From Takakia lepidozioides (taxonomy: Eukaryota; Plantae; Bryophyta): a DNA stretch of 64,000 bases. The position numbers and the translations under genes are program-made. The notes under the pieces are model-generated. The model was not told the DNA's origin, made no database searches, and saw only the letters and a list, made by a program, of their open reading frames with translations. Position 1 is the stretch's first letter; each line of letters opens with the position of its first letter. Shown piece by piece: positions 11,101 through 47,615 of this stretch. The stretch is from contig CM060734.1 of assembly GCA_030704615.1 (NCBI GenBank), positions 46,066,001-46,130,000 on the forward strand, given 5' to 3'.

Positions 11101-11883
11101 ACGGACATGGTTGTGGCTCATCAAATCTCCACAAGCAAACTTATGTACACAGAGCTGCAGACACCATTGACAACAACTTCGCCACTTCTCCGCATATTGA
11201 AATTAAGTTTGTCCAATTGGCCACAAGGTTTGTTTGGTGTCATGGGGGCAATATTGACTGGCAGTGCCAAACCACTGTACTCATACTTTATGATAACAAT
11301 TGCAGTTGCATATGCCAAACCGGCAACTATTAACAAGATAGTCAACCATTTCTTGCTGGGTTTCGTGGGTATTGGGATTGAAGTCATATAAGTATAGTGC
11401 AACACTATTTTTCTGGGAATCTTTGGCCAGAAAGTTACCAAGAGTGTGCGTGAGAAAATTTTCTCAGGTAAGACTTTAGGAGTTCATGGCACATTTGAGT
11501 ACATTTCATATAAAGCTCTATGTAGATATCGAATTTCCTGTACAATGTTTCCTATAGGACAATGTAAGGAGTCAACAGACTGGTATTAAAGGGATTCATA
11601 TTGGTCCACATTCATATTGATAATGGTGTGGACACATCCATGACCAGTGGTTACGCGCAATGAGGTGGGGTGGCTTGATAAGGACGAGAACACCACTGTT
11701 GCCTCACGTCTGGCATCCGATGCGGCACTCATCAAAACAGTCCTTAGCGACCGTCTTGCATCAATAATTGAAGAGATGTCATCTTTAATTGTCGCACTTG
11801 CTCTCAATTTGATTACAACATGGCAAGTCGCACTAGTTACTTGTGCCATACTGCCTCTTTATCTTCTTGGAGGTTTTGGACAG
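8159..11883 (+). pseudogene. ABCB (P-glycoprotein/MDR) transporter pseudogene fragment: part of TMD1, NBD1, linker and start of TMD2
   Basis: Exons ~8159-8359, ~8643-8918, ~9239-9552, ~9762-9986, ~10192-10478, ~10850-11467 and ~11648-11883 with ABCB motifs ([52 protein letters not shown]). Walker A is mutated (GSSGSRKST), the signature is mutated (LSRGQKQR), and there are in-frame stops at 9984, 10457 and 11389. Confidence 0.9.
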
Positions 11884-12008
11884 GTACATATTCTTCTTGA
11901 ACAAGATTAATGTATATATGGACCTTAGACCTGAGGGAACTCCGCTGGATCTTCTTTGCATTCTGATCAAGTTCAAATTCTATACCTCCTCAGGTTCACC
12001 TATAACTG

Positions 12009-12524
12009 TGTCGTGCGCATACATATCGCTACACAACTACATCGCTGTCCAAAACCACACAACACATGTGCACACCACACACTAGTATACCACTAGTCTA
12101 CCACTAGTCCAGCCACTAGTCCAACCACTAGGCTACAACTAGTCAGTCACTAGGCTGCCACTACGCTGCCCACTATGGCAGTCACTAGTCCACACAATGA
12201 TAAAGAAGAAGAATACAAGCACAAGCTCATGCGAGCTCACAAAGCTGAAGCATAAACTCATGCATATATAACCTCATCACTCAAATACAAGTCAAGCCAA
12301 GTGCACCCCACGCCATGGGGAATCCACACTACGGCGCCATAGCTAGGCGCGGTGAGGCTCAACTCGAGAAAGATGAGCCTCCCGCGCTTGCCGTGAAGAT
12401 AACCACTCCAGGGCCTAAATCTGCCTTGACCCCTGGATTGACACTTGGGCCAATCCCAAATGTCAATATGTAAAAGCTAGCTATTTCCTAGCTAGTTTCA
12501 CACTAGTGGTAAAATAACTTGACA
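12009..12524 (-). repeat. 3' terminal repeat block A(12009-12197)-B(12198-12358)-C(12359-12524)
   Basis: A+B recurs at 12527-12876 (offset 518). B+C recurs at 24032-24358 (offset 11834). Confidence 0.95.
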
Positions 12525-12526
12525 GC

Positions 12527-12914
12527 TGTCGTGCGCATACATATCGCTACACAACTACATCGCTGTCCAAAACCACACAACACATGTGCACACCACACAC
12601 TAGTATACCACTAGTCTACCACTAGTCCAGCCACTAGTCCAACCACTAGGCTACAACTAGTCAGTCACTAGGCTGCCACTACGCTGCCCACTATGGCAGT
12701 CACTAGTCCACACAATGATAAAGAAGAAGAATACAAGCACAAGCTCATGCGAGCTCACAAAGCTGAAGCATAAACTCATGCATATATAACCTCATCACTC
12801 AAATACAAGTCAAGCCAAGTGCACCCCACGCCATGGGGAATCCACACTACGGCGCCATAGCTAGGCGCGGTGAGGCAGTCACTAGTCCACTATGGCAGTC
12901 ACTAGTCCACACAA
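12527..12914 (-). repeat. Inner repeat block A+B plus a short duplicated A-end fragment, next to a PPT-like tract
   Basis: 12527-12876 appears identical to 12009-12358. 12874-12914 repeats GGCAGTCACTAGTCCAC from the end of A. The minus strand reads AGGGGGGCGA at 12924-12915, directly before TTGTGTGG. Confidence 0.9.
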
Positions 12915-13173
12915 TCGCCCCCCTAGCTGGTGCTTAGGTCCCTCTAAGTCCAGGTAGCCACAAGATGTGATAGTGACCATAGCCTCACTAAGTCCTCCAC
13001 CACTATCCCTACTACACTCAAACTCGATAGATCAAGAGGCCGGGTGCAAGAGTTGCCCCATCGTTAGTCGCCGTCTTGCAACCTGTGAACTTGAGCTTGG
13101 GATCTCATGTATTGACTCCTATGAGCTTGGCCTCCCATGTCTTGTTAGCTGCCTCCAGTCATGTCCACTGCCA

Positions 13174-14440
13174 CTATCCCAAGCAGTGTGGACACAACCA
13201 ATCTCCGTCAGGCACCTTCTCAAGAGGTGGTGTCAAGCATCCCATATGCCAACCCCTTGAGCACCGATCACACACCAGCATGGTGGCTGCCCCTTTGGCA
13301 GACCCACAGAGCATGCACCTCAAACCTGCAGGTACCACTGCCAAGTTTGGGTCAACTCTGCCATCGACATTGGGAAGGTGACATGGCGCACAATTACGCA
13401 CATGGTCTTTCCAAGTCATGCCATCCCGACCCTCTAAGATCAGGACCCCTGAGGGCAACACCTCTCGAACCCTCAGAATAACACGCCCTGCAGTAACATC
13501 CAGAGTCGTAGGAGCAGTCTGCTGCAAATAAACATAGTCACCAGGGCTAAACCTCCGAACCCCAGGACGATATCCTCCACCACGTATAGTGGCATACCTC
13601 AACGTATCACGGTGCTGTGCAATGGCAAGGTTCTCAAAAGCCATGGGCATAACTTTCTTGAACAACTCTGCACGCTGATCACATGCACGTACCCACACGT
13701 CCGGATCGTCAAGGTTAAGGACTTGAGCAGTGTCCCTACGAATGGCTGCAGGCAAATCCGGCTCTCGGCCAAAGAGAAGGAAATATGGTGAGAAGGAGGC
13801 AAGTGATGCTTGTTTGCTGAACCTGTAGCCCATGGCTAACCAAGGAACCTGAAGATCCCAATCTCCTAGGTGTCCCTTCTGCAAGCCATACTTGCGCAAA
13901 CCCCTCTTCACCGTCTGAACAACTCTCTCTGCTAAGCCATCGGCCTCAGGATGATCCCGAGAAGTGGTGCGGTGGTCTATCAAGGCTTTATCACACAAAG
14001 CCTGAAACTCCCCCAAGAACTCTCTCCCTTGGTCCGTGAGTACCTCAGCTGGAGCATCAAATCGGCTAAGCACACGATCCAAGAATGCATACGCAGCCCC
14101 CTCACTAGCCTTGTCAGGGCAATGGAACCAACTCAATCCACTTGGAGAAGTGCTCCACCATCACCAACACATATCTGTGGTGGCGCATAGTCAGTGGCAA
14201 CGGTCCTGCGAAGTCAAGACTCCACCTATAGCCCAATCCCATGATAGGTAAAGGATGCAACTGTGGTGTAGGGGCGTTGAATGAAGCACGCACCCTGTCA
14301 CACACCATGCACCTAGCCACAAACTGTTGCACCTCTGTATGCATACCACGCCACCAATACTGCCCCTGCAGTAAACTGTGAGTGCGTCGCACTCCAAAAT
14401 GCCCCAACTCCTCATGGGCATGCCGCACTAACCGTGCACG
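13174..14440 (-). CDS. Integrase (H2C2 zinc-binding domain + rve DDE core) with C-terminal PHD finger
   Basis: HEELGH..CMVC, WSLDFAGP, LTDQGREF and HPEADGLAER motifs. Terminal C4HC3 motif CMLC..VCDRC..WHMGC..WLCPHC at ~13180-13325. 1-bp homopolymer frameshift at ~14117. Confidence 0.93.
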
Positions 14441-16149
14441 CTGTGTGGGGTGAGGCACAATCCTCACCCGACCATCCTCCCACACTCGAAGTAGGTGTAT
14501 CCCCTCCCACTTGAACCTCTTGGCTCGTTGCAGGATCCGATCCCTCTCCCTGGCAGTCACAATGGCTGCCGTGTCTCCCGTGCGGAGGTAGTCCAACACA
14601 GCCGAATCCTCATGTATATCTCTGGCACCACCTAGCTCATCACTAGCCTCAGGGTCCTCAGACACTCCGTCTACAGTCATCCCTGTTGTAGGTCCAATCT
14701 GACCTCCCGATGCCAAGATACACAAAAATGCAGATGCGTGCCATCCCGGCACCATTTCCTCGTCCGTCTCACCATGCCACCGAGCTCCAGTGTCATCCTG
14801 CTGGCTCATGCATGGATTGCGACTCAATCCATCCGCATCCCGATTGACCAAACCCGGTCGATGCACAACCTGAAAGTCATACTCCTGGAGTATAAGTGCC
14901 CACCGTGCAAGCTTCCCTGTAAGCTTGTCTGACTCCATCAACCACTTGAGTGGCTGGTGATCCGTGACAAGGGTGAAAAGATTGCCGTATAGATAGCACC
15001 TGAAGTGTGCCACGGCCCACACTGCAGCTAAGCACTCTCCCTCATATGAGCTGTACTTAGCCTCTGCAGTGTTGTTTGAGCGGCTAGCGTAAGCCACTAC
15101 GAACTCTCTTCCCTCATCATCCACCTGTGTGAGCACCGCTCCAAGCCCCAGCATGCTCCAATCCGTATGCAGCTGAAAGGGACGCCCCCTGATAGGTCGT
15201 CTCAAGATAGGCGCCGAGGTCAACCTCGCCTTGAGCTCTTGAAAAGCTCGTTCCTGCTCATCTTCCCACTGCCACTCCTGGTCCACCTTGGTCAGCTTGG
15301 TTAGAGCCTTTGCAATGGTACTAAATCCCTTGACAAACCGTCTATAATAGTTTGCCAACCCCATGAAAGCTCGAACTCGGCTCACATCCGTGGGGCGTGG
15401 AATTTGTGCAATGGCCTCTACCTTAGTCTGCTGTACCCCCAATCCTCCAGGATATATCATGTGACCCAGATACTCAATCTGGTTGTGGAAAAACTTGCAC
15501 TTCCCCGGATGCAACTTCAATCCGTGCGCTCTCAAGCGCTCCAATACCACCTGAAGGTATCTCTCATGCTCCTCCATCGTAACACTAAAGATGATGATGT
15601 CATCTATGTAGCACCGAGCAAAGTCCACCCCTGCTAGAATCCTATCCATGACTCTCTGAAACTCTGCAGGAGCATTCTTAAGCCCAAATGGTAAGAACCG
15701 CCACTGATATAGGCAATCCTTGCCGTGCTCATTGATCCCCCAGAATGCCGTCTTCTGCTTGTCCGCCTCCTTGATGGCAACTGGTGATATCCGGATCGTA
15801 AATCCAAAGTGCTAAAGGCCTTAGCATGCCCGATGGCATCAAAGATCTCCTCTGGTGTTGGCATGGCATACTTATCGGACTTGGTCTGACGATTTACAGG
15901 CCGGTAATCACCGCACATACGTCTCTCCGTCCAATTGCCATAGACATCCTTCTTGGCTGGCATCACTGTGGCTGAAGCATACTCTCCCCCAGAGAACTCC
16001 ACCAAACCTGCCTCCCAGAGATCTTGAGTCCTCATCTGAATCAAAGACCTCTCCATGTCACTGTATCTATAGGGTCTCCGAAAGATTGGCGTGTCAGTGG
16101 CCAACTCAATACGGATCTCTTGACCCTTCAGTGCTCCCAAGTCCTTCAA
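14441..16149 (-). CDS. Gypsy-type reverse transcriptase and RNase H
   Basis: PIFRRPYR, RMCGDYRPVN, LDLRSGYHQ, PFGLKNAP and YIDD (~15600) for RT; LHTDWS..GLGAVL, YSSYEGECLA and TDHQPL for RNase H. 1-bp frameshift at ~15776. Confidence 0.95.
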
Positions 16150-16599
16150 ACTAAAGGCAAAGCAATTCCTGTAAAGCCCTCAGGAACCGCCGTATACGTC
16201 GTCTCTCTCCTCCGGTGACAATGGGTCCAATGTCAGGCTCCTAATTGTCCTCCGTAACTACAACTTAAGTCCAGTGGGCTTAGAGGTAGAGGACGCGTCC
16301 CGTGGTTGCTATGCTGCAACCTCTTGAGCAGTACTCCCTGCCTGCTCAGTCAATGACAAGACCTCATCCTGCCCCATCATCTCATCATTGAGGACCTCCT
16401 CAACCCGAGAAGAATCCCAACCTCATCCATCACAGCCGCCTTGGCTGCCAACTCCCCTCTGAACCTCGAGCACCTCCCACGTGTGCCATGGATGCATGCA
16501 CCCCGTGGTCCTCATATGCTCGCCCCCACTCACTGCCTGTACCGTCTCGGTAGGCAGAGAGACCATTGAGGGAAGTGTATTCCGCACTCTGCGTTGCTC

Positions 16600-17560
16600 A
16601 GCTAGAGCCAAGCTGATAATCCAGGTCAAGCAATTGAGATCCATTGCTTGCCCCAACACTTGACGACGTGATGCCTCAGAAAGAGACGACACGCCGTGGT
16701 GGTACCAGTGGTAAAACCCATTGCCCGCTCACGCTCGTCAGCATTAGGCTCCACTAACTGCTTGCTGAGCATCCCACAGGAGGCCAGGTCCACTATCCCG
16801 GAAAGCATGCGATCCTGGGAAGCTGAGCAGTGTAGGTAATGCTGCTCGTGGTTGACCCACCTTGTTGACCACTGCCAACGGCGAACGGTCATCGTGTCTC
16901 ACACGTTGAGACTTCCTCCCTGTGTCCAGAATGTTATCCACTGTGAGATGTGCTGGCCGCTGCACCCCATCAAATGCACGCTTGAGCAGTGCGGGGGGCA
17001 TCATGTTAGTCCACCATAGCCGTGGACGATGAGCCCGTGACCCCACTGTAGCTGCATCTAGCAACACTGCTGACCCAAGCCACGACCGGACTTGATGCAC
17101 ACTGGCCATCACCCTGGCCCGAGAATCGCCCATCAGTGGCACATTCTCCAAGATGTATGCTGGAGATACAGCTTGATGAAGCTGCAAGTGGCGCAAAACC
17201 CGCACCATCTCCCAAAACAGACCCGACCTCGAGTCTCGCAATCCATTGCCATGCCCGGCTGATGAATGCCCTTGGCAGGGCCAACCTGCCACTACCAGAT
17301 CAATGGAGCCAACCCGCTCCAAATCCTGCGCCCCCAGCAACGAAATGTCTGCTGGCAAGGCCTGCTGATATCCACGAATTGCAGACACCGACAACAACTC
17401 AGGGTACCGCTGCACCAACTGAGCAACATGGCGAAGTGAAACGCGTCGTGCAGTCTCATCCCTCTCCACATACAGGTAACGCCGAACTCGTACACCTGCC
17501 TGTAACACAGCAGCCAATCCGGTGCTGATCCCGCCAAACAAGTCCAGAAGACAAATGCCT
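16600..17560 (-). CDS. Dnmt3-like C5 cytosine DNA methyltransferase domain inside the retroelement polyprotein
   Basis: Motif I LDLFGGISTG, II YVERD, IV DLVVAGWPCQG, VI YILENV, VIII LDAATVGSRAHRPRLWWTN; after short frameshifts, IX ERERAMGF and X RRQVLGQAMD. Same ORF (16744-18615) as the protease. Confidence 0.92.
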
Positions 17561-17959
17561 TCATCCGGAGACTGCCACACAATAGGTGTGGTGTCCAATG
17601 GAGACAATTGAGGTGGTCCTGGTGCAATCCCCACACTCTCCTCCTCTCCTGACGGTACAAAAGCCTCCACCCAGGCTTGTTGCACCCGTCGATCAGCATC
17701 CCGCTGCAAATCCTTGCTCGTGCCCCACAATGGAGTCTGAGCAACCATGGTAGGCAACTCCGCCATACCATACATGTCATCCTGCTCTCCCGGAGGTGGT
17801 ACATCCTCTGAATGAGCATTGCCCTCAAGCAACTCTCTAGGCCAACTCACTGCCGCTGTGAATGCTGCTAGTGTCGGCATCTTGCCTCGCTGGGCAACCG
17901 CAACTCCTCCTATGAACGTCACAGGGAGCTGCACACGCCGGCCCTCCCCTGACTGCCAT

Positions 17960-18300
17960 GCAGGCCTATAGGAAGCTGACTCCTCCCAAAAATCCAGGGT
18001 GAAGCCCATGGGGTACAACACTGCCCCACCAACCAGGACATCGTATGAGACTGCGTCTGTCACAATGGCCTTGGCTCGCATCACTGAGCCATCTGTAGGG
18101 TGATCCGGCCGTAGTCTGATAGCCAACTCACGCCGTGTCATGCCCCGAGCCTGCTCCGATCCTCCCAGAGACGTCTGTATCTGGAAAGGACAAGGCTCCA
18201 TATCCGCCTCCGTGAGGCCCAAGCCTGCAATAGCAGCTCTGCCCAGCATCAATGGCTGAGCTCCCGAGTCCAACAAGACCCGCAGTGGCCGGTACCTCTT
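17960..18300 (-). CDS. Retroviral-type aspartic protease domain
   Basis: RVLLDSGAQPLMLG catalytic motif and downstream YDVLVG motif. Confidence 0.85.
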
Positions 18301-18566
18301 GCCTGCCGGTCCACTCAAACAGAAAATGCCATCCTGGTTGTCTAACATGACAACTCCAGGTGTCACCATGGCGCGCTCAATGGCTGGCCTAGCTGGCAGC
18401 TCCATCAACCTGGCAGCTGCAGCTTGCCATGGCGCCGCCGTGGCAGTCTTGACCCTCAAATCCGAGGATCCCTCCGGCACTACACCTCCTACTATCTCCG
18501 CAGAAGATGAAGTAACCTCCCCACTCTCACAGAGTGTAGCTGCCAGCCTGAACACCTCAGCTGGTC

Positions 18567-20472
18567 TTACCCCGGCGTCGCAATCATGGTAGCCGAGAAC
18601 AATGGAGCCTGGCACACAGATGTGGCCGCTCCTAGCAGCACACTAGCTGCCGTAGCCTTGGCAACACTAGGTAGTGGTGCTACCCGTGTAGCTCTCCCCA
18701 ATGGCATAGTAACCTCCGCCTCGGTAACAGTCGGGCGAGAACTAGGTGCCATGGATGGCGTCGACACTGTCTCCGCCAATGTGAATGACTGAGGAAGCCT
18801 AGCCTGACGGCTTGCCTCCCCACGCTGTGGATCCAACTCCACCTCTGCACCTCGTGGCTCAGGAACTCGTGCTGCTCCTCGAGTCACGGCTGCAGCAGAC
18901 TCCACCTGCACTAGTGGTAGTGCTGCTCCACACATGAATCCCATGCCTCCCATATCTCCTCCCTCAGGAGCAGGAGGTGGACCATCCGGCCTTAGAGCCG
19001 GTACCACCTGAGCTGTAGCCATGGCAGCGAGCCTCTGCTCTAGCTGCTGAAGCCGGTTGGCCATGCCTTGGTCAACACCCTGACCTCCGCGTCCTTGGCC
19101 ACGTTGAGCTTGCCCTTGGCCTCGTGGCTGGCCACCTCGTCCCCTCTGGGCTGCTCCACCTGCCCCCGGCCACCATTGTTCCCTTGGAACTGGCCTGGGC
19201 GCAACTCAGGATGCAAACCATAACACTGAGCCTCTCCATGCCCGTGTTTGCCACAATGCCCACACTGTAACTGTGCAGGCTGTGCATGTGCCGGCCCTTT
19301 GCCTCCCTCTGGACAATCCTTCTTGACATGGGGTCCTCCACATGTCCAGCACACCACATCCGCCCGTTGTTGGCCAGCAAATGAAGGGAGAGACCCCTGC
19401 ATCTGAGGTCCTCTCTGCCCTTCCCTGAGCTTCACCTGAGCCCCCTTGTTGCCTTGAGCACGTTGAGGTAGTGGTTGGCTAGGAGCACCACTACCCCGTG
19501 GTGTCTCCTTAGCAAATCCCACCATGACCACTCGTTCCTCCACCATGTTGAGCTCTATCCGCTCTGCCAGCAAAAACACATTTGCTAAGGTGGGTTGGGC
19601 CGCTTGTAGGAGAGTTGCATCCCGCACCCTTCTCCTCAGCTCCTTGTCCAATATCCCATACCAGAATTGGACTGCCTGAGCTTCCGTAACCCCGGGGTTA
19701 CATTTATCAAGCGCCTCATGCGAGTGAAAGCCTCCCTCAAGCTCTCGGTCGGCTTCCGTTGGAACTCTTGCAAGCTCCGCAACTTCTCTGTCCTCACCCC
19801 TTGGTAGTTCCCTCTCAACTCTTCGAAGAACTCCACAACAGGGTTGAAGGCAGGCACGGGTGCTAGTGCTGGTGCGGTAGTGGTTTGGGTGGACGTCGTA
19901 GCTACTGTACCACCAGTCCCACTGCTGCTTGCTGAAGCTGCCGGTGCAGCGGCAGGTGTAGCCACTGCCCTCGTGGCTCTAGTGCCCCTAGTGATGGAGA
20001 CATAGTCGGGTGACCAGTACATCCTCCACTCCTCGATCTCAACCTCATGCCCCCGCCTGAACTCATGGTAATCATCCATAGGCGGCCCCTCAAGGTGCTG
20101 AAACAGCCCTTTCCATGCCATGAACGGCGTAAATAGTTGTGGATTGCACATTTGCTGCAAATCACACCAACTATCAAACTCTTGGATAAAATCATCCAAC
20201 TCAATGGTGCCCACCGCCCCAGAGTACCTTCGTGGCCCCTTGGTAGCTCCATACATCTCCTCCATTGTGTCCCACAATAATGGCAAAGAAACAACTTGCA
20301 CCGCCGGTATGAGCCCTCCTGATTCACAATCCGAATCAGAACCTTCCGTGGAAGACACAGGAGGTGAAGGTGGCCTAAACCGCACACCTCGTCTCGTGTA
20401 CCCACTAGTATCGCTAGTGCTCGAACCGGCACTGTCCCCAGCAACTAGTGGCACCTCCGTGTTGACACTCAA
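18567..20472 (-). CDS. Gag (capsid-like region + two CCHC zinc knuckles), frameshifted
   Basis: LQEFQRKPTESLREAFTRMRRL resembles retrotransposon gag. Knuckles CWTCGGPHVKKDC and CGHCGKHGHGEAQC. Split over ORFs 19636-20472, 19040-19651 and 18567-19064. Confidence 0.85.
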
Positions 20473-20772
20473 CCGGTCATGAACATGTCCCTAACCCCCT
20501 CTCTACAAGGTAACCGGGTAGAGAAACCTGTTGCGGCTTATGGTTTGGAATACTAAGTTCCTAACATAGCCTATACCTGAACTTGCATGACCATGGGAAT
20601 ATCATGAAGATACTCCTCAAACCGCCCTCCACGAGCTTCAAAATTCGGCCTTCCAGACCACATGCCAGTCCTTAGGCAGTCCACCAGTGCCTCCACGAGT
20701 CAGCACAGGCCGTCCACAGGTCAACACGGGCCACCACAGACCAGCACAGGCCCACACAGCTCACTGGTCAGA

Positions 20773-22497
20773 GCCGTCACAGTCCCACAGGCCACTTGGC
20801 ACAGCCTGTCACAGCCCCTCACAGCCTGTCACAGCCTCAAAGGCCTCAGGCACGGCCTGTCACAGCCCGTCACAGCCCGTCACAGCCCCAAAGGCCATGG
20901 GCACGGCCTGTCACAGCCCCTCACAGCCCGTCACAGCCTCAAAGGCCTCAGGCACGGCCTGTCACAGCCCCTCACAGCCCGTCACAGCCTCAAAGGCCTC
21001 AGGCACGGCCTGTCACAGCCCCTCACAGCCCGTCACAGCCCAAAGGCCATGGGTACGGCCTGTCACAGCCGTCACAGCCCCACAGGGCACAGGGCACAGC
21101 CTGTCACAGCCCCTCACAGCCCGTCACAGCCCCAAAGGCCTCAGGCACGGCCTGTCACAGCCCCTCACAGCCCGTCACAGCCCCAAAGGCCATGGGCACG
21201 GCCTGTCACAGCCCCTCACAGCCCGTCACAGCCTCAAAGGCCTCAGGCACGGCCTGTCACAGCCCCTCACAGCCCGTCACAGCCCCAAAGGCCATGGGCA
21301 CGGCCTGTCACAGCCCCTCACAGCCCGTCACAGCCCCACAGGGCACAGGGCACAGCCTGTCACAGCCCCTCACAGCCCGTCACAGCCCCAAAGGCCTCAG
21401 GCACGGCCTGTCACAGCCCCTCACAGCCCGTCACAGCCCCAAAGGCCATGGGCACGGCCTGTCACAGCCCCTCACAGCCCGTCATAGCCTCAAAGGCCAT
21501 GGGCACAGCCTGTCACAGCTCGCCACAGCCTGTCACAGCCGTCACAGCCGCACAGGCCTCAGGCACAGCCTGTCACAGCCCGCACAGCCGTCACAGCCCA
21601 AAGGCCACTGGGCACAGCCTGTCACAGCTTGCCACAGCCTGTCACAGCCCGTCACAGCCCCACAGGCCACAGGGCACAGCCTGTCACAGCCCCTCACAGC
21701 CCGTCACAGCCTCAAAGGCCTCAGGCACGGCCTATCACAGCCCCTCACAGCCGTCACAGCCCCAAAGGCCTCGGGCACAGCCTGTCACAGCTCGCCACAG
21801 CCTGTCACAGCCCGTCACAGCCCCACAGGCCTCAGGGCACAGCCTGTCACAGCCCCGCACAGCCCGTCACAGCCCCAAAGGCCACTGGGCACAGCCTGTC
21901 ACAGCCTGACACAGCCCATCACAGCCCCACAGGGCACAGGGCACAGCCTGTCACAGCCCATCACAGCCTGTCACAGCCCGTCACAGCCCCAAAGGCCACA
22001 GGGCACAGCCTGTCACAGCCTGACACAGCCCGTCACAGCCCCACAGGGCACAGGGCACAGCCTGTCACAGCCCATCACAGCCTGTCACAGCTTGCCACAG
22101 CCTGTCACAGCCCGTCACAGCCCCATCACAGCCTCAAAGGCCTCAGGCACGGCCTATCACAGCCCCTCACAGCCCGTCACAGCCCCAAAGGCCTCGGGCA
22201 CAGCCTGTCACAGCCCGTCACAGCCCCACAGGCCTCAGGGCACAGCCTGTCACAGCCCCGCACAGCCCGTCACAGCCCAAAGGCCACTGGGCACAGCCTG
22301 TCACAGCCTGACACAGCCCATCACAGCCCCACAGGGCACAGGGCACAGCCTGTCACAGCCCATCACAGCCTGTCACAGCCCGTCACAGCCCCAAAGGCCA
22401 CAGGGCACAGCCTGTCACAGCTTGACACAGCCCGTCACAGCCCCACAGGGCACAGGGCACAGCCTGTCACAGCTTGCCACAGCCTATCACAGCCCCA
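20773..22497. repeat. Tandem array of (GT)CACAGCC cores in a ~51-bp higher-order unit, inside the retroelement leader
   Basis: Unit AAAGGCCTCAGGCACGGCCTGTCACAGCCCCTCACAGCCCGTCACAGCCTC has period 51 at 20941. Variant units continue for about 1.7 kb. Confidence 0.97.
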
Positions 22498-22959
22498 CAC
22501 ATGGCCGCTCTGGCAGTTTAGCCATTTCTCCAAGGGGTTTAGCCACGCCAAGCTAGGGTTTGTGTCTCTGGGACTCTAGGCTTCTTTCCACCGAGCTATG
22601 GCGGCTGTGAGGAACTCAGCAAGGTATTCTTGTTCTTTCGGCTCCCACACACCACCATAGTAGCCCTAAGCCATGAGGTGGTTGCCACAAACCAAGCCTT
22701 CTTTCTCACTTAGCCTCCCCAAACACGCCACTAAACTCAATGGCAAACAACCAAGCCCTGCTGGTTCCCAGCCCTTGTGAGCACTCATTCAAGCACTCTC
22801 CTTGGCCATAGCATCTGTCTTAGAGCCTATTCCAGCCCCCTACACCTGCTGCTTCAAGAGTTGCGCTCCCTTCAAGCTTGAAGTTGAAACCCCAACTCAC
22901 ATAGGCCCTACAAGTGCTTTTCTTTCACTCCAAGTGGAAACCAGCCCTAGACCTTCCGT

Positions 22960-23360
22960 TCTAGCTCTCTAAGGCTTGAAAACAAGAGCCTCAATGGGCT
23001 GAAGGCATGCTCCACACATGCCCCACTCTCACCATAAGAGAATCAGCTCCTTTGCTTCATTTCTTGCACCCACAAACCTGAAAATACAAGCTTCAGCAGG
23101 CTGAAAGCATGCTCTACATGCCCTACAGGGAAACCAGCCCCTTCCTTCCTTCCTTGCACTCCCACACCTAAAAGTGCAAGCCTTCACCAGGCTGATAGCA
23201 TGCTCCACACATACATTGCCCTCACATAAGGGAAGTCAGCCCTTCCCTCTTCCTTGCTTGCCCTCCAAGCTTGAAGATGGAAGCTTCAATGAGCTGAATA
23301 CATGCTCCACACATGCAACCTCTTCACACAAGAGATATCAGCCCCCTATCTTGGCTCCTT
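22960..23360. repeat. Four degenerate ~100-bp repeats in the retroelement leader
   Basis: Core GCTGA(A/T)(N)2CATGCTC(C/T)ACA recurs at ~22997, ~23100, ~23191 and ~23293. Confidence 0.7.
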
Positions 23361-24015
23361 GGCTCCTTGATGCTCTCTAAGACAAGACTAAGCACTCCAC
23401 AGCCCTTGCCAAGCTCCTGAAACCCTAAGGCTTACATTTCCAGCCACAAGACACTTCTCTTGTGGTGCAAGAGCTCTTCTTCCAAGCTCTGAAACCCTAG
23501 GTGCACATTCCATGGCCTTGCCGCACCTCTTAGCTCCTGTTCCAGCCCTGCTCTTGCCATGACAAGAGCCCTCTCAATACTGAAGCTCGAGATTGAAACC
23601 CAATCTCACCATACTCCACAAAGTGCACTGATTTGCCCCAAGCCAAATCAGCCCTTTCGCTTGGTCTTGCAATCCTTCACACAATGACAGCTCGCATTCC
23701 CAAGTCCACTTCTCAGCTTTGCCACCAAAGCCACTATAACCTGCTCTTGACTGGTCCTCTTCCCAATCGTGCTTGCTCATGCATGTACACAATCTGAAAC
23801 CATCAAGGTGCTCTGGAATTACCTACAGTATGGTGCTTTCATCTCTGAAGCTGAAGATCGAATGCCAAGGTTTACCACCTCGTAACCCACATCGCCTCCG
23901 CTTCTAACAACCAAGAGCTCCACGGTGCTCCTTGCATAACAACTTGGTTTCTCTCATTCTCAAGCAAAAACCACAAGTGCTACAACTAACTCGTATCTAG
24001 CACTCATAGATACGA

Positions 24016-24032
24016 GCTCATCTTTCTCGAGT
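24016..24032 (-). promoter_or_regulatory. Putative self-priming primer-binding site
   Basis: GCTCATCTTTCTCGAGT (24016-24032) is the exact 17-nt reverse complement of 24196-24212 in the terminal repeat. It lies where a tRNA PBS (TGG...) would be expected, and none is present. Confidence 0.65.
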
Positions 24033-24358
24033 GATAAAGAAGAAGAATACAAGCACAAGCTCATGCGAGCTCACAAAGCTGAAGCATAAACTCATGCATA
24101 TATAACCTCATCACTCAAATACAAGTCAAGCCAAGTGCACCCCATGCCATGGGGAATCCACACTACGGCGCCATAGCTAGGCGCGGTGAGGCTCAACTCG
24201 AGAAAGATGAGCCTCCCGCGCTTGCCGTGAAGATAACCACTCCAGGGCCTAAATCTGCCTTGACCCCTGGATTGACACTTGGGCCAATCCCAAATGTCAA
24301 TATGTAAAAGCTAGCTATTTCCTAGCTAGTTTCACACTAGTGGTAAAATAACTTGACA
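24032..24358 (-). repeat. 5' terminal repeat (B+C, 327 bp; TGTCAAG...TTATCA in element orientation)
   Basis: Matches 12198-12524 except for a C/T change at a CpG (CCCACGCC vs CCCATGCC). Confidence 0.95.
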
Positions 24359-24399
24359 ACTGCAATACTATTTCTCGTCGTCCCTTTCTAAGATTAGTT

Positions 24400-25332
24400 A
24401 TGCAATTATCATCACACAAGAACTGGACGGCTATGGAGGTACATGTGTTAGCTGTCGCAAAGCGCCATGAGTGGGAGGCTTGGAAGGCCTCCAATTCGCG
24501 TGGCAACATGATGTGCGACAACGTAAAATGGGAGAGGGTAGTTGAAGTGTTGGAATCGCAGGGTGTGAGCGGGCGGGACGTTGCTGGGTGCACCACCAAG
24601 TGGCAGCATTTGTGCAAGCAGTACAAAGACATCTGGGGGCACCAACTCAATGCCACCGGCAACCGGGACTATTTCACGATGAGTTCCGATGAGCGCGTGG
24701 CGTTGGGACTTCCGAAGTCCTTCGCCAGGGACCTCTTTGAGGACATGAACTTCCTGGCTGAGCGTGCGTGCAACGCTCCCAAAGTGACATCAGCGAGCTT
24801 GAGGGTAACACCAATTGTTGCTCCTTTGCCCCCTGTAGACATAGATACATCGTTGCCTCATATGGAAGAGGAAGTACTACCCTATGCTAATAATGAGGCT
24901 GCACCTGCTCTACCATCATTGGATGGGATGGCCCATGTGCGGGTAGAGCATGATGAGGCGCCGATTCTTGCACGGGGTCGGCCTCCAGTGATGGGCCGGG
25001 AGAGGTATACCAACACCTCTCCCACACCCTTTACCAATTCGACAGGTAAGAAAAAGAAGGGAAGCACAACCAGTGCCGATCTACTCAAGGCCTTCAAGGA
25101 AGGGAATGAAGGTTTGTTCAAAAATATGGAGGAGGATAGGAAGGAGAGAATGGACAGGTTTGCCAAATCTTTTCAACTTCAAGATGACATCTTTAAATTT
25201 GAGGTTGAAAAAGCTAGAGCAACCTTAGCTACAGAGCAGGCAGCTTCAGGTAACCAGCGCACCATGGTGTCGCATTTTGGAAAGCTCGTTGAGCATTTTG
25301 GAAAGCTAGTTGAGAAGAAAGATGACGCCTAG
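24400..25332 (+). CDS. Myb/SANT-like (trihelix) DNA-binding protein, probably the accessory ORF of a PIF/Harbinger transposon
   Basis: Intact 310-aa ORF with NWTAMEVHVL..KWERVVEVL..GRDVAGCTTKWQHLCKQYK, a basic NLS-like KKKK and a C-terminal coiled-coil-like region. Convergent with a Harbinger transposase. Confidence 0.8.
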   Translation: MQLSSHKNWTAMEVHVLAVAKRHEWEAWKASNSRGNMMCDNVKWERVVEVLESQGVSGRDVAGCTTKWQHLCKQYKDIWGHQLNATGNRDYFTMSSDERVALGLPKSFARDLFEDMNFLAERACNAPKVTSASLRVTPIVAPLPPVDIDTSLPHMEEEVLPYANNEAAPALPSLDGMAHVRVEHDEAPILARGRPPVMGRERYTNTSPTPFTNSTGKKKKGSTTSADLLKAFKEGNEGLFKNMEEDRKERMDRFAKSFQLQDDIFKFEVEKARATLATEQAASGNQRTMVSHFGKLVEHFGKLVEKKDDA

Positions 25333-27619: not shown

Positions 27620-28750
27620 ATGTGGTTGCACAATATCGCCCTCAAATCAGCACCAACTGTATGGCCCCTATTGACAACTGGTTCTTGACTGTGGGCAACT
27701 CGATCACGCTCCATGATGGCTGCCATGGCATCCATCTCATTGTAGATGCCCTCAAAGTCAACTTCCTTGAAATCAACCAAAAGATTATATAGGATGCAGC
27801 ATGAGTTCGCTCCTCCAACCCACCTCTTTGAAGGTGCCTTTCATTCAACCAAAGGCAATCTCCGAGAAAATTCTTGCCTTTAACAATTGGTGATTGAAGA
27901 CGGTTTTGGCTCTGGAGAGGACTGGAGCATTGGGAGCTCTTTTGTAACTAGGGATGAGCCAGGGGAGGGCAGGGTAGACTGCATCACCAATAAGGAGTGG
28001 TGGGATCTCGTGTCCATTGTCAAGAATGACATTCTCACCACGCAAAAGAGTGCCCTGTGATGCAGGATAGAAAAGGGGGGAGTTCCGTAACACCCTAGAG
28101 TCGTTCATACTGCCGGGCTCTCCAACATAGATATCCACAAACTTTGCATCTGGATCCACGACCCCTTGTAGAACCATTGAATAGTAACCATTTCTGTTCC
28201 TGTAATCAAATTTGATGTCATTGTTGGGGGCCTTGATTCTGATCTGTGTACAATCAATTGCACCGACAACATTCGGAATCCCTGATCTCTTCTCGTTTTC
28301 AAGCATCGATTTCTTGAGAGTCTCACCTCCTTGCCACTGTAGGTGGTGACCCAGGACAGAGATAATGGCAGGGACCACTTGTCGCAAAAGCTCATACAGA
28401 GTTGAACGACCAATTCCAAAAGCCTCGGTAATTTCTATTGTTGTGGCTGCCCACAGTAGTTTATAAAGCACTGCCCCTACTCTCATCGGTACAGGTAAGC
28501 TCCTCCGGTACCTAGTATCATGCATCTGTATAACCGGTGCAAGGGCATTGCACAACCAATCGAATGTGCCTGCACTCATCTTCATAATCTGCAGCCATCT
28601 CTCGTCATCATATTGCAAAAGAAAGTCCTCAAACCAAGCTCTCGATCTGTGCTTGATCCACATCCCTAAAGACATACCACCTCTCGGCTTGTAGTTCCTA
28701 ATGGTCCAGAACTGGCGCTGCAAAAAACTCCTACATGCAAGGAGTAACAT
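27620..28750 (-). mobile_element. PIF/Harbinger DDE transposase (HARBI1-like), C-terminus disrupted
   Basis: VGAIDCTQIRI, YYSMVLQGVVD, GSMNDSRVL, LLIGDAVYP and FNHQLLKARIFSEIAFG motifs, then a stop at 27845. Confidence 0.9.
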
Positions 28751-29739
28751 ATCTGGATCATCCTCCTTGGCTAGGTCAATATCATGACGAAGCAGAGTCG
28801 GTCATGCCTCTTGTGGGCGTCTCATCCCAAACAACTCTGGAGCCTGATCGAGCATGAACTGTATAAAGACAAGAATCTCTCCCATGGCAATAGCCAATTC
28901 GTTTGTCATATTGAAGTCTGAACTCATGAACCAGCAACACCTCTACTAGGGCAGTATTTAGATTGGCATCTTCTATGACTCCAACTTTGACAATGAACCC
29001 TGTAGATATGAGCATTCCAATGCTTGAGAACACATCTCAAGATGGATATCATACATCACTAACTTAGCTTGATCCACAGTATGGAGCATGAAAATGTAAA
29101 TGAAAATGTAGTCTCATGGAGTATCATTATTGCAGGCTATGCTCAGCATAGGTGTGGTAGGGAGGACCTCCAACTATTTGAACAAATGCAATGGATAAAA
29201 CATAGAGTTTGGACAGATCAGAGTTGTCTGTAAAACAGTCTCTTCTGCAAAGGGCTTGTGTGCAGCAGCTGGTGGGCCCAGAAGGAGCTTGTGCAATATC
29301 ATTGTGTTCCCTCCACTGGACACATAAGCATCATCAGACATTGAAAGACATTTCAAAAGGGATCGACCAGCCAAGCATGCCTGTCAAAACAGGGAGAAAC
29401 CTGCATGGAGCAATTCCAGAAAAAATTCTCACCTTTGCAACTCAGGAAGGCCTTTTGCTGTCTTCTAGCATCAAATCGTTGTGAACTCTACAGGCACCAA
29501 GCACCACAGCTCCCTCTTCCCTGCAGCCTTTCGCACTTGGTGATTGCTTGTCACTGACAAAAAGATAGCACAAGTCTCTCAAACTGACCTTCCATTGGAA
29601 CAGCAGTCTGAACGCGGCAGGGCCTGGGTCGTCAAGCCACTCCCACGGGCTCCGTCCACCATAGCCGCGGGAAGACGGGCGGGCAGCCCGATTTTTTTTT
29701 TTTTTGCGCTCCTGCTAACAAACTGCCGCGCGACGGTTT

Positions 29740-38604: not shown

Positions 38605-41600
38605 TCACCTTGCTGATGGCTTTACAAAGTTTTCACTAGAATTGGTTGAAGCCAGAGGATAAGGAGCATGACCATCTAACGAACCTGGGGATAAACTCGG
38701 GGGTGCCAGGGTCGAAGGACTGGGGGCCTTACTATGGAATTGACTGGACCTGTTTGTATATTTGTAGGTCTCAAGCTGTATTGCCTCTGTAATCCCTTTC
38801 ACCACTTCAGTGATGTCAGGCCGGTGGTAGCTAAGGGGCTCCACGCTCAAAATCGCCAGCTCTGCCACCTTCCACATAGCTTGTATGCTGTAGTTGTTTC
38901 CAAGGGCCGGGTCGACAATTGCTTCAAGATCTCCCTTTTGCAAGAGCGACCTCGCCTAAACATGAATTATCACATTGCCACACGTCAGGGACTGGTAGAG
39001 CTGACTTTTAGTGATTACCACATTGACCTTCCAGTTGTTATAGCTCTCTCGACATCATATCTGAAAGGCCAGAATAATGTTCTATGTATCAAGACAGGTC
39101 TTCAGGACAAATAGATTTCTCCTCCCTCTCTCAGGACTCCCTTTGAACTGGAGGCTGGGTTGATGGCCACAAGAGATATGGCAAGCACAGCTTGATGGCT
39201 GGAGGGATCTTTCCCTACATTGCAATATCCAAAGGAAGGAACAAAATTACAAGTTTCCTGTGTTGCACTGCTTTGATTTCCTTTCTAGGCCCAACTTGGA
39301 ATCCAAGGCTTTTGAGATGTACTGGGCACATATCAACCATCTCTTCCCTCTGTACCTATCTTTTAATGTGAATACCATATATGAAAATGCAGATGGGACC
39401 TCACCCAATTGACAATGCTGAAACCTGGAGGATTGTGCTGTGAAGAAAGTGGGCCCCTTCCTGAAATCAACTCAAGAAGCACCACACCAAAGCTATATAC
39501 ATCGCTCTTCCTTGTCAGCTGCTGTGACTGGTCATACCTGCGGGGCCAAAAACCGAACGTGCTTGAGCTCCTGTGGGAGACAAAATAAACTTCACAGTAC
39601 ATATGGAAGCCCAAAGAGCTTTCTGTGGCAAGAGCACATAACAGACAAGAAACAACAACGAAGGAAAGCCTGGGCTTAAATGACTGATCAAATATGGAGG
39701 GCTTCTGCATGAAAAAATTATTGGGATCCATTAGTCTATTAATCTCCAACATCTGCTTACCCATTAGAGTGGCTTGTACTTGTTGGGTTCTCAACATTTG
39801 GAGATGACACACAACTGTGTTTCCTAATGTCACTTGGGCACATAACTCAGACGCAATCATTTTCTTTCTTTCTTTCACGAGATCCGTGGGAGATTCCACT
39901 GTTTATTCCGTGGAACTCAATCTCTCACTGAAATCTTCCACTATGAGGATCAGAAATGCTTGGCAGCATACCTGCACGAGGCCTTCACCCTTAGACAATC
40001 ACTCGAACAATAGTTCTTATTCTTGGCTTTGGTTTTGTTTCCTCTCTCATGTTTTCTTCCATTTTGTCCCATAAGCCCTATGAGCTTTCCACGGACATTA
40101 TAAAGCACCATTTCATTCATTCATTTCATTTCTTTGAGCTTTCCATGGACATACAAAGTGTCATTTCATTTCATTTCTTGTTTCTATCTGTGTTTTAAGT
40201 TCTGAGTTAGGTCCTGACCTCCTTGATGTCCTCTCTTAGATGAAGAGCCTCATGTAGATATGCCGCAAGGATGTTAGGACCTGACCTCAGAAGTTAAAAT
40301 ACAAACAGAAGAAGAAAGTAAGAAACGAATAACATCTGCAGTGGAAGGTCTACTGCCCACCGGACAGGAGAGAACACAGTTGTCTGTCATCTCTGAATCT
40401 TGTGGACCAACAAGTACAAGACACTCTCAATATCATTGGCAGTGCCAGGGAAAATCCGGTACTGATGATGTAGAGCAGAGGGGGATACAAAGTAATGCAC
40501 ATAGTGGGTTTCAATCAGTAACAGTGGGATCATGCTAGTTAAGGCAAAGTAAGAGGACATACTCTGGATCAAGGTACCCAACAGTGCCCTGGACAGTGCC
40601 TGAGATTGGGCTGGATTCATCATTGGTGAGCTTTGACATCCCAAAGTCAGATACTTTGGCCACCATCTTGTTAGTGAGAAGAATGTTGCTGCTTTTGACA
40701 TCCCTATGAATGATGCTGGGATTGCATCCGGTGTGCAGATACTCCAGTCCTGGGAACATGTTAGATTTAAGAGGGCTCAAAAATTTCCCTACAAACTGGG
40801 CTCAACCTTAAAGCAAGAAGAAGAAAAGTGAATTGGCTGGTGTCAGAGTTCCATGGAAAGCTCAAAAAACTTGTGGGACAAAGGAAAGCAGGATAGAAGA
40901 GGCCCTCGACAAGCAGCCCAAAAACAACTACTCCACATCAATGAATTTTCCAGCCTGGAGAGCCTCATGGGAAAGGACATGAGGCTGAGGGTAAGGAAAC
41001 AAGTTTGACATTCCAGTTGCCAACATGTAGAAAATACTCTTAGCTAAACATCGTTTGCTTCCTCCTTCTACATTACCCCAGTCTAACACTTGGAGCTGCT
41101 AGTGCCTCCTTGGGGTGAGGGGACAAATTCAACAAGGCAATATCCCTGGGCCACATACTGTCAACAACCTAGGCCTATGGATTGAACCCAGGACAGCCTA
41201 CAATGTGGCCACATGTGGCTATCTGCTGGGCTGTCTGTTGGCACCTGGCATAGACAAGTATCCAATAACTGATCTCAAAGGCATGAGACTGTGGTAAAAC
41301 CAAGAAGCTTATCCATGCAATCCAAGATAGATATTAAACCATGGGGCACCTTTAGCTGCATCGAGAGCAAGGTTGAGTCGAGGAATCCAGTCCAGTGGTT
41401 TGGTGATTGCAGGTGGTCCTACACAATTGCAAGAAACCCAGCCCAGCTCTAGATTAATAATGCAGCATCACTTGTGGGAAGTATTTCTCATTCTGCAAAT
41501 GGCAATATCACCCTCTCCCTTGCCCTCATCAAAAGCCATGGCCACTGGCATTTTCTCTCTCCAACTGTCCAGCAGGGTCTGTAAGGTGGGGCTATGTTCC

Positions 41601-44600
41601 CAGAGTACATACATCATAGCCAATGTTGACAGGGAGACAGAAAGAAATGAAATGAAATGGTGCTTTATAACATCCGCGGAAAGCTCATAGAGCTTATGGG
41701 ACAAAATGGGAGAAAACATGAGAGAGGAAACACAACCAGAGCCAAAAATAAAACTATTGCTCGAGTGATTGTCTAAGGGTGAAGGCCTCGTGCAGGTAAG
41801 CTGCCAAGCATTTCTGATCCTCGTAGTGAAAGACTTCAGAAGAGAAATGAAATGAAATGGTGCTTTATAACGTCCGCGGAAAGCTCATAGAGCTTATGGG
41901 ACAAAATGGAAGAAAACATGAGAGAGGAACAAATCCAGAAACCACAATTAATGTTCTAGTGATTGTCTAAGGGTGAAGGCCTCGTGTAGGTAGGCTGCCA
42001 AGCATTTTTGATCCTCATAGTGGAAGACATCAGTGAGAGTTTGGGTTCCACTGAATAAACAGTGGAATCTCCCACGGATCTCGTAGTATAGAGGGCAGTA
42101 GAAGAAGAAGTGTTCTTCAGTTTCAATTTCCTTGCTGCGCCCTATGCAAGCTGGACATAGGTGGTCCTCCCGTTGCAGGTTTTCCCATCTGCCAGTCTCT
42201 ATCCGTAGGTTGTGGGAACCCACCCTGAACCGCCCCAATGCCCTCAGGAGGGAAGGAGATAAGGGTGCTGAAAGGTAATTTGGTCTCAAGATTCTATCAT
42301 CGCGGAGCACCAAGAATGTCTCTCGATAGAAGTGGGAGCTTTGTCGTGAGGTTGGGTAGCTTCCAAGTTCTCTTGACATGTAATTCCATAAGCTCTCTCC
42401 TAATGAGTCTGTTGCGGTCATGTCTGGATGTGATGTCTACCTCATCTGGGTTCATTGGTAATAGGAAAGCAGTAGAAAGTCTGTTACGTTGAAATAAACT
42501 GTCCACTCGAGCATACCAGGAGTTCCTGAAACCTGCAGCTTTGAGCCTCATAGATGTTGTGAGGGCCCTTGCCACTAGCCCTTTGGGTGGAAGGGCCTGC
42601 AATCTATGGAGAAAGATTGTAAGCCTGAAGAGGTCCTCGGATTCAATGGTACACATGCGAACTCTGCACCTAGGATCTGAAATGGAGTTGTGCTCCTGGC
42701 GCCAAGCATTGCTTGGAGAAAAGATGACTGTAATGGTTCCAAATTCTTTTCCCACCAGGAGACAGGGACACCAGGTGCCCAGAACTCACAACCATAGATG
42801 GAAGAGAGAGAGGAGGAGAAGAGATATTTTACTGTCCACAATGACCAGAAAGAAAGAACATACCTCCAATGAATAGACCTCAACACCTTAGGCAACCCAA
42901 ATAATTCATAAACAACAAAACTTGCTATGTAAGGTAATTGTTAGCTGCTACATAATCAATGCTGGAAAGAATACAAGACTTCTTGTTATGGTTTACCATG
43001 GAGGTGATCAAATAAGGTTCCATTTGGCATGAATTCATAAACCAGCATTCGTTCCTTGACGTCATGGCAGTAGCCGATCAGCGCCACCAGGTTGCGATGG
43101 TGCACTCTTGACAGGAGATTCACCTGCGCTTGGCAAGCACAAGCAACATAATATTAAAAACTAGGAGGACTGGGCTTGAGGATTTATACTCCACGTGTGA
43201 GATTTTCTTCACCAAGAAGTTTTTATTACAGCAATCCAGAAGAACCATACTTCAGATACTGAAATGGACCACACGTGTCACTTGGATTTGCCCCAGGTCA
43301 CAGCCCACCTCATTGAAAAATTCTCGCACTCCCTGCCGGGAATCCCCAGCCAACAATTTCACAGCTATTTCCTGGTTGTCTTTAGTCTTTCCATAAAACA
43401 CTGGACCAAAACCTCCCTCTCCAATCTTCTGACTGAAGTTCATTGTGGCCTCTTTCAATTCTGCCAGTTGGAAGTAGTGGGCCTGGTCAACAGGTGGCAC
43501 ATCAGGTGGTGCCAGTACTTCATCGAATGAAGAAAATCTTCCAGATGTGTGGGTTTGCGATGAGGGCCCTGCAATTAAACCTGAAATAAAAAGGTATATG
43601 TACGTTTAGAACTTTATTCCAAATCAGGAGATAAGCTTGAGGCGTATAGGATGTACTGCAGGACAATATGCTTCCAGAGGCACTTCTGGGGTTCCGCCCA
43701 CCAGGATATGCGACTCATGTTGAATTGCTGAAAGACAATGTTGATGACAGATATGATACTGCCAGTCACAGAGTGTCTACACAAGGAAAGGACGACGAGC
43801 AGAAGAAGGTATCATGGAACACAGAGGACAGATCATAGGACAGAGTAGAAATGAAATGAAATGGAATGGAATGGTACTTTATACTTTATGGTACTTTATA
43901 GAAAGAACTTGGTAATGTCACAGGGGGCCGCAAGGGCTTTTGGGACAAACCAGGAAAACCAGAAACCACTTGAGAAACACCAAATGTCACACTAAGCCAC
44001 AGTGCTCAGAGAGAGATGCACTGATTATATTTCCTTGTTGTGGGATTCTGGCCTTGCGAAGAAAAAAGAACAGATGAACAGAAGACATGGCTGATGTGAC
44101 GTACTGGTCTTTGTGCTTCCCCCTGTTGCTGATTTCTGGTGTCGTCTGACGAAAAAGAAAAGGGCTAAGGCTCCCAGTATGAACAAAAACGCACCGGCTG
44201 CTATGCTGCCTACCACTGCAGCAACGTTTACATCCGACCTTGACGACTGAGAACAGCTTGTGCTTGCACAGAGATTAGGGTTTCCCTCGTACCTGAAGTA
44301 TTGGATATTGCATTTGAGTGTGTTCCTGAAACTGCTATTATCACTCCCATCACAGGTAAAGCTGATTGCAGAAGAGTAGCAAGAAGGGCATTTTTTTTGG
44401 ATTTTCAATCTTAACTGGGAAAGAGGTGCTGCTATAAGTCTTGGTCAAGTTGACAGTCAAAAATCCAAATTGTCGTTAACTCAACAGAAAAGTGCCCCCC
44501 CACCCAACAACCAGGCACCACAACCATAATACAACAATTCAATGTGACCAAGACAGGCGTAACTTATCATGCATCCTTCACCTATTAGTGCTCGCAGGTG

Positions 44601-47574: not shown

Positions 47575-47615
<41 letters not shown>

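Follow-up and report, generated by a model that had tools for sequence, protein, structure and literature searches.

The window, i.e. the whole 64,000-nucleotide stretch of Takakia lepidozioides DNA analysed here, harbours on its reverse strand a retroelement whose extent and internal features are as follows:

12009-24358, minus strand: Ty3/gypsy element of 12.35 kb, with outer ends TGTC..GACA and a 4-bp target duplication
13174..14160, minus strand: integrase core and C-terminal PHD finger (Pfam rve 2.9e-5, PHD 4.8e-11)
14114..16179, minus strand: reverse transcriptase, RNase H and integrase zinc finger, spread over two frames (Pfam)
16744..18642, minus strand: C5 cytosine methyltransferase ORF (Pfam DNA_methylase 9.3e-13; 46% identity over 202 aa with Klebsormidium protein P0051)
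18567..20490, minus strand: gag region in three frames (ORFs, and a weak Retrotrans_gag match at E 0.0056, below the standard of the curated cut-off)
20774..22501, no strand: leader tandem arrays of 10-, 51- and 52-bp units, in nested repeats

The pol order (reverse transcriptase, RNase H, integrase), the DDE integrase, the TG..CA ends and a target duplication within the 4-6 bp range are those of Ty3/gypsy elements. A C5 methyltransferase domain precedes the reverse transcriptase in pol, and a protease-like motif was read by eye in the same ORF (16744..18642). Taken together, its DNA-methyltransferase and PHD domains make it a Ty3/gypsy of the KnitGypsy-Dnmt3 type. In the window, pol is broken over several frames; the enzymes of this copy may no longer be active, or the assembly may contain errors. 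No Pfam match to a tyrosine recombinase was obtained in 17 ORF pieces of at least 100 aa from the window element and 42 pieces of at least 120 aa from the related loci L050, L052 and L061, a scan that a short or broken remnant could escape. Tandem arrays are likewise present in several related loci.

Homologues with the same domains were found in green algae, charophytes and Marchantia; the nearest named relative, at 82% over 271 columns, is a protein of Marchantia polymorpha. In a quick reverse transcriptase/RNase H tree of 51 rows, made without bootstrap and including neither Tf1 nor Tcn1 sequences, the window belongs to a 30-row clade (SH-aLRT 97) with P0051, a methyltransferase-bearing Klebsormidium polyprotein, and with green-algal proteins, separate from two chromodomain-bearing proteins. 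The second D and the E of the integrase core are 34 residues apart, and D and E are invariant, in 22 of the 22 aligned clade proteins (P0001-P0035 alignment). This spacing is one residue below the usual D-to-E distance of 35.

As for related loci, the comparison was based on 80 metagenome loci (the best 80 of 478 confirmed) and on two genome-contig loci, two of the nine genome-contig loci being relatives. L099 and L100, close relatives of the plant element, lie on contigs of a genome labelled as a cyanobacterium, probably through eukaryotic contamination of the bin. Among viral contigs, the single-protein scan returned no locus, and the 18 loci of the alignment scan were rejected: none has the PHD motif, none of 15 was placed in the 30-row clade, and none of the eight scanned carries a self-complement. 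In DNA run X2, the depth of the element summed over contigs is about 1000 times that of the flank, a value which is not a copy number and from which the family of the window is probably very abundant.

On either side of the element, several other features were observed. A Myb/SANT-like ORF (24352-25332, plus strand) faces a DDE_Tnp_4 ORF (27845-28801, minus strand), likely a PIF/Harbinger transposon beside the insertion, and the left flank (11500-11885) resembles, by eye, an exon of an ABC transporter gene. Dispersed repeat families, some of them inverted and all unrelated to the element, occupy 2723-3378, 39877-42334, 47587-48168, 54491-55008 and 57469-62999; genes with tubulin, root-cap and malectin-like domains (Pfam) are found among them.

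The terminal regions of the element are built from two repeats, X of 327 bp (segments C and B) and Y of 189 bp (segment A). Read in the sense of the element, the order is X, primer site, internal region, polypurine tract, an extra 200-nt unit, Y, the dinucleotide GC, X and Y:

12005..12008, no strand: left target-site duplication, 4 bp, identical to 24359-24362
12009..12197, minus strand: terminal Y, 189 bp, the 3' end of the element, finishing GACA
12198..12524, minus strand: second X, 327 bp, with one mismatch to 24032-24358
12521..12530, no strand: palindrome GACA-GC-TGTC at the Y/X junction, with the outer-end sequences head to head; putative integrase cutting site
12527..12715, minus strand: internal Y, 100% identical to 12009-12197
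12716..12915, minus strand: extra 200-nt unit, composed of the opening 29 nt of Y, a short repeat and the closing 161 nt of X
12916..12925, minus strand: polypurine tract, immediately preceding Y, its position being kept in relatives
24032..24358, minus strand: 5' X, the 5' end of the element, opening TGTC
24359..24362, no strand: right target-site duplication, 4 bp, identical to 12005-12008

The junction between the 5' X and the internal region was the starting point of the original prediction, according to which the element primes reverse transcription with its own RNA in place of a tRNA. The features concerned are:

23990..24016, minus strand: 10-bp hairpin, the nine inner pairs having a probability of 0.83-0.98
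24016..24031, minus strand: predicted self-complementary primer-binding site, with a putative core at 24020-24031
24197..24208, minus strand: predicted 12-nt self-primer, with a predicted start at 24208; the complement continues to 24212
24230..24236, minus strand: non-canonical TTATCTT, at the aligned position of TATAAAG in family 2

The 17-nt complement on which this idea was based is exact, 24016-24032 being the perfect reverse complement of 24196-24212. It adjoins the repeat as proposed, but its first matched base (24032) still belongs to the repeat, as its final base, and the site proper starts at 24031, directly after the terminal CA and without a TGG start. Shuffling the 327-bp repeat 1000 times with its dinucleotides preserved gave anchored complements of at most 9 nt, vs. 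17 observed, and a CA-anchored complement scan of both strands of the 64-kb window gave the 24016-24032 region as its sole site.

Besides the window, 12 distinct related 5' copies were compared (L003 and L004 counting as one, and likewise L067 and L068), which fall into four further families with differing primer-site sequences. The five families thus have five site sequences, each pairing with its own X repeat, 113-174 nt upstream. At least 11 of the first 12 positions pair in nine of the 13 distinct 5' copies, while in the four others (L003, L050, L066 and L067) the pairing is decayed or deleted. Compensatory changes between the two arms, which had been suggested as a check, do occur in the related families: over the nine copies, 12 of the 15 pairs are altered on both sides. 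In the nine-copy alignment, 95.9% of the cells pair, vs. 37-49% when it is slid by 1-3 columns, although an alignment limited to the well-paired copies and end-anchored by hand leans toward structure. Position 13 of the site (24019) varies at 20% of the depth in DNA run X2, with no change of its partner among the rows listed.

As in the Tf1/sushi elements (Tcn1), the site is complementary to the 5' repeat of the element and devoid of the tRNA-type TGG, here in all five families. The complementarity kept across the four related families, with different sites each matching their own upstream repeat, gives good support to Tf1-like self-priming, of which we are highly confident. The original prediction was therefore largely right, self-priming being a known mechanism encountered here in a further lineage, one without chromodomains.

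Concerning the start of the RNA, 24208 is more probable than the 24212 that had been proposed. A TATA-like motif is present in four families 29-32 nt before the pyrimidine-A that opens an 11-14-nt complement; the corresponding A of the window predicts a start at 24208 and a 12-nt primer. A single raw RNA run yielded 0 reads. The family of the window has no canonical TATA at the expected place. The TATATA near 24100, which had been named as a possible competing start signal, is not conserved in five aligned family-2 copies, in which the upstream TATA position does align. A minor subfamily, accounting for about 7% of the depth of DNA run X2 at 24214-24215, diverges immediately upstream of where the primer is predicted (24214-24263). 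A short inverted repeat brackets the primer both in the window (24185-24217) and in family 2 (L006:8400-8440), where the primer doubles as the second arm of a palindrome of 10 bp.

The same complement might alternatively be a structural stem of the 5' leader, acting in packaging, translation or the promoter, with priming left to a fragment of a host tRNA or another small RNA. When the RNA begins at 24212, the fold has a z of -8.4. In the equilibrium fold, nine of the 12 primer pairs form, the three LTR-proximal ones competing with other stems and costing 4.8 kcal/mol if forced; that the minimum-energy fold holds only part of the duplex would suit a leader stem. Against it, the duplex forms only with an RNA starting at the primer, its probability being about 0.01 if the RNA began at 24240. 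ARAGORN found no tRNA within the 64-kb window and Rfam no match in 23500-24500; the tRNA search covered this window rather than the complete set of host tRNAs, which leaves the alternative some room. A stem that begins at the first base after the LTR's CA in all five families, at sites which never open with TGG and each match their own repeat, is nevertheless hard to reconcile with a mere leader structure, and we consider this explanation very unlikely.

The 10-bp stem formerly described beside the site (23990-23999/24007-24016) is present, directly after the primer site. It is the sole perfect stem of at least 10 bp with a short loop in the 64-kb window, although 20 shuffles gave 0-3 such stems each, so that it is unremarkable window-wide and notable only by its position. 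A competing hairpin prevails in short folds, whereas the 23990-24016 stem dominates when more downstream context is included. Within the host family, the pair 23999/24007 changes from A-T to G-C on both sides together, the G-C form representing 75% and 76% of the depth in DNA run X2, about two thirds in X9 and three of three contigs in X10. Families 2 and 3 offered no comparable hairpin in the six copies folded (z between -1.26 and +1.34), and we take the hairpin to be a leader structure of the family rather than something that defines priming.

With self-priming retained, the layout of the repeats, which the original prediction did not address, is the more surprising feature: a permuted LTR with an internal head-to-head site. 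Ty3/gypsy elements have two equal LTRs bounding the internal region at the primer site and the polypurine tract; here, the tract-to-primer-site unit (Y and X) is whole at the 3' side only, and the inserted ends fall inside it. With the polypurine tract marking the start of Y and the primer site the end of X, the LTR made by reverse transcription would be Y+GC+X (518 bp), and at the X/Y junction (12198/12197) the end defined by the primer site meets the end defined by the tract. Split direct repeats are those of DIRS, PAT and Ngaro, while the tyrosine recombinase gene of these elements was not found in the ORF pieces scanned.

The complete order X-internal-Y-X-Y was also found in L050 and L052, and both X copies in L061. 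All 18 tract/Y junctions listed start within about 8 nt of the G-run. In 23 of 23 rows, the Y/X junction reads GACA-NN-TGTC, head to head with 2 nt between the two halves, and 21 of 44 rows (20 distinct) stop exactly at the GACA of Y before running into flank. The 4-bp duplications match perfectly in four cases (the window, L050, L003, L055) and with one mismatch in two (L052, L006); those of L059 do not match. Among ten visible 5' ends, none had the mirror layout X-Y-X-internal-Y.

The X/Y junction is variable. In family 3 (n = 12), at least six forms were distinguished: two blunt, four with an added AT, one with ATT, one with ATTC, two with T and two with lost bases. In six of these 12 junctions the added bases are those opening the primer site (ATTC), 2-4 site bases being kept. 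In family 2, five of seven X/Y junctions share a single A, as does the window (1-nt overlap).

Copies with a single Y did not prove older than Y-X-Y copies (P 0.89 and 0.08), in a test that is weak because all copies are of similar age and L029 is misclassified by a 1-nt deletion. They could derive from later Y-by-Y recombination or from assembly collapse. L034 and L035 are less than 1% apart with differing ends, and the flank of L035 is that of L003; this pair is likely a chimeric assembly.

Segment B occurs three times in the window, as had been stated (161 nt at 12198-12358, 12716-12876 and 24032-24192), but the third copy is absent from the relatives and is thus no feature of the family. 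It belongs to the extra 200-nt unit, whose private character was judged from the relatives and from read depth. No piece of X lies between tract and Y in the relatives (18 junctions listed, with two duplicates, and further matches), and the contig depth summed over B is similar to that over C (0.95-0.99 vs. 0.91-1.18 million in DNA run X2, 157 vs. 150 in X10). The breakpoint of the unit and the primer cut predicted here are 4 nt apart, for which the chance is about 0.02-0.03, and the unit may therefore be mis-transferred strong-stop DNA; alternatively, it may come from a later duplication and deletion.

This proximity would also agree with the whole layout being a one-off rearrangement or an assembly artefact of an ordinary two-LTR element, the third B recording a normal strong-stop transfer. 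The private nature of the third B speaks against such an origin, as does the recurrence of the split layout in several families from independent assemblies, together with its description in Klebsormidium in the accessible part of PMC5890265. Moreover, loose contig ends run from X into Y in three of three DNA runs, with the X-to-Y palindrome found in the contigs of each. We regard this explanation as extremely improbable.

The patterns at the junctions are observed, and each enzymatic step below is put forward to account for them. By analogy with Tf1, in which an 11-nt primer is released by an RNase H cut between bases 11 and 12 (accessible text of PMC7175516), the 5' end of the RNA would anneal to the primer site and RNase H would free the primer; the strong-stop DNA would then, on the same analogy, correspond to segment B plus about 4 nt. 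Self-primed reverse transcription would yield Y-X-internal-Y-X. The variability of the X/Y junctions suggests that the two cDNA ends would be joined there imprecisely, anew in each cycle. The DDE integrase would cut the head-to-head site in the 5' LTR and insert X-internal-Y-X-Y, the inserted TGTC..GACA ends being taken from the fixed Y/X palindrome. Single-Y copies would arise from one-LTR circles or from cutting at both sites.

Integration via the internal site on an end-joined cDNA is, in our estimation, fairly probable. The joint reading, i.e. a self-primed Ty3/gypsy with a primer of about 12 nt from its own RNA and an integrase opening an internal CA-NN-TG on joined cDNA, is one that we hold to be quite probable. 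A two-LTR circle would contain two equal sites, and the mirror product was seen in none of the ten 5' ends; either the choice of site is biased, or the join is a template jump.

A template jump leads to a different account, in which self-priming holds and no end-joined circle is formed: the reverse transcriptase would build X-internal-Y-X-Y by programmed jumps, and ordinary linear ends would be integrated. The single orientation of the split is directly accounted for, and the 1-nt X/Y overlap of the window and of the five family-2 junctions suits a microhomology jump as well as end-joining. Synthesis would need, however, to stop or start exactly at a palindrome lacking both the tract and the primer site, whereas a fixed site with its 2-nt spacer, and the many copies ending there, point to a cut. 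Programmed jumping is in our opinion unlikely, and cutting of the internal site on joined cDNA remains the preferred reading.

At the level of the clade, the balance tips slightly towards a green-algal and bryophyte Ty3/gypsy lineage having uncoupled the ends of reverse transcription from those of integration, with self-primed linear cDNA being end-joined and a D-34-E DDE integrase opening an inherited head-to-head site within the LTR. If true, this would be a natural retroelement lineage for which a circle-junction site is the obligatory route of integration, and which has converged with the recombinase elements on a split-repeat layout.

Retroelements with split direct repeats and a tyrosine recombinase are explained by a circular-intermediate model. 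With PAT, TOC1, Ngaro and SymbioDIRS-Dnmt3, the window shares the order A-coding-B-A-B and an internal junction reproducing the joined ends (layout from the accessible text of PMC5890265); it differs from them by its DDE integrase, TG..CA ends, 4-bp duplication, and canonical polypurine tract and primer site. The closest described element is KnitGypsy-Dnmt3 of Klebsormidium nitens, for which the legend of Fig. 4c reports a DIRS-like repeat arrangement with Gypsy domains (de Mendoza et al. 2018, PMC5890265, accessible part), the A-coding-B-A-B combination also found in the window. Both have a Gypsy pol and a cytosine methyltransferase domain, and P0051, which we infer to be that very element, belongs to the 30-row clade of the window. 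In contrast to the present data, the accessible text of PMC5890265 names neither a primer site nor a polypurine tract, analyses no junctions and proposes no mechanism; the element is reported from a charophyte.

As for self-priming, it was predicted for 12% of the plant elements surveyed in the accessible part of PMC6317226, including Tcn1 and the Ty1/copia TAR. Like Tf1/sushi, Tcn1 and TAR, the window element has an RNA 5' end (its start being predicted here) complementary to the primer site. Unlike Tf1/sushi, it has an integrase ending in a PHD finger, no chromodomain match in Pfam, and split repeats rather than two equal LTRs; self-priming is thereby added to a lineage without chromodomains. 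A PHD finger in the polyprotein is shared with Gypsy-7a_cRei and REM1 of Chlamydomonas. Gypsy-7a_cRei is a PHD-bearing Gypsy with LTR subparts, for which the accessible text of PMC9940879 describes neither a split layout nor a priming mode. Troyka was considered and rejected, its CG..CG ends and 3-bp duplication (accessible text of PMC12440569) differing from the TG..CA and 4 bp found here.

Integration of retroviruses and LTR retrotransposons is taken to use the ends of linear cDNA, LTR circles being regarded as dead ends. The integrases of HIV-1 and foamy virus nevertheless cut palindromic two-LTR circle junctions after CA in vitro, and a 2008 review saw no proof of junction cleavage in vivo (accessible text of PMC2615046). 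In a retroviral two-LTR circle, the junction cut is the end-join itself; in the window, the putative cutting site is a palindrome of its own, inherited and located within the LTR. Genomic copies here point to an internal head-to-head site being used as a matter of routine, so that junction cleavage could be studied with a natural integrase and by sequencing extrachromosomal DNA. In the literature searched, whose coverage was thin for subscription papers, theses and Repbase, no paper was found that connects self-priming and split repeats with an internal site of integrase action within a Gypsy clade. The repeat layout was noted previously in one 2018 figure legend, and the internal-site mechanism is apparently without precedent in that literature. 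Finally, LTR finders would probably misplace these elements or overlook them, a terminal repeat pair being absent from about half of the related copies.
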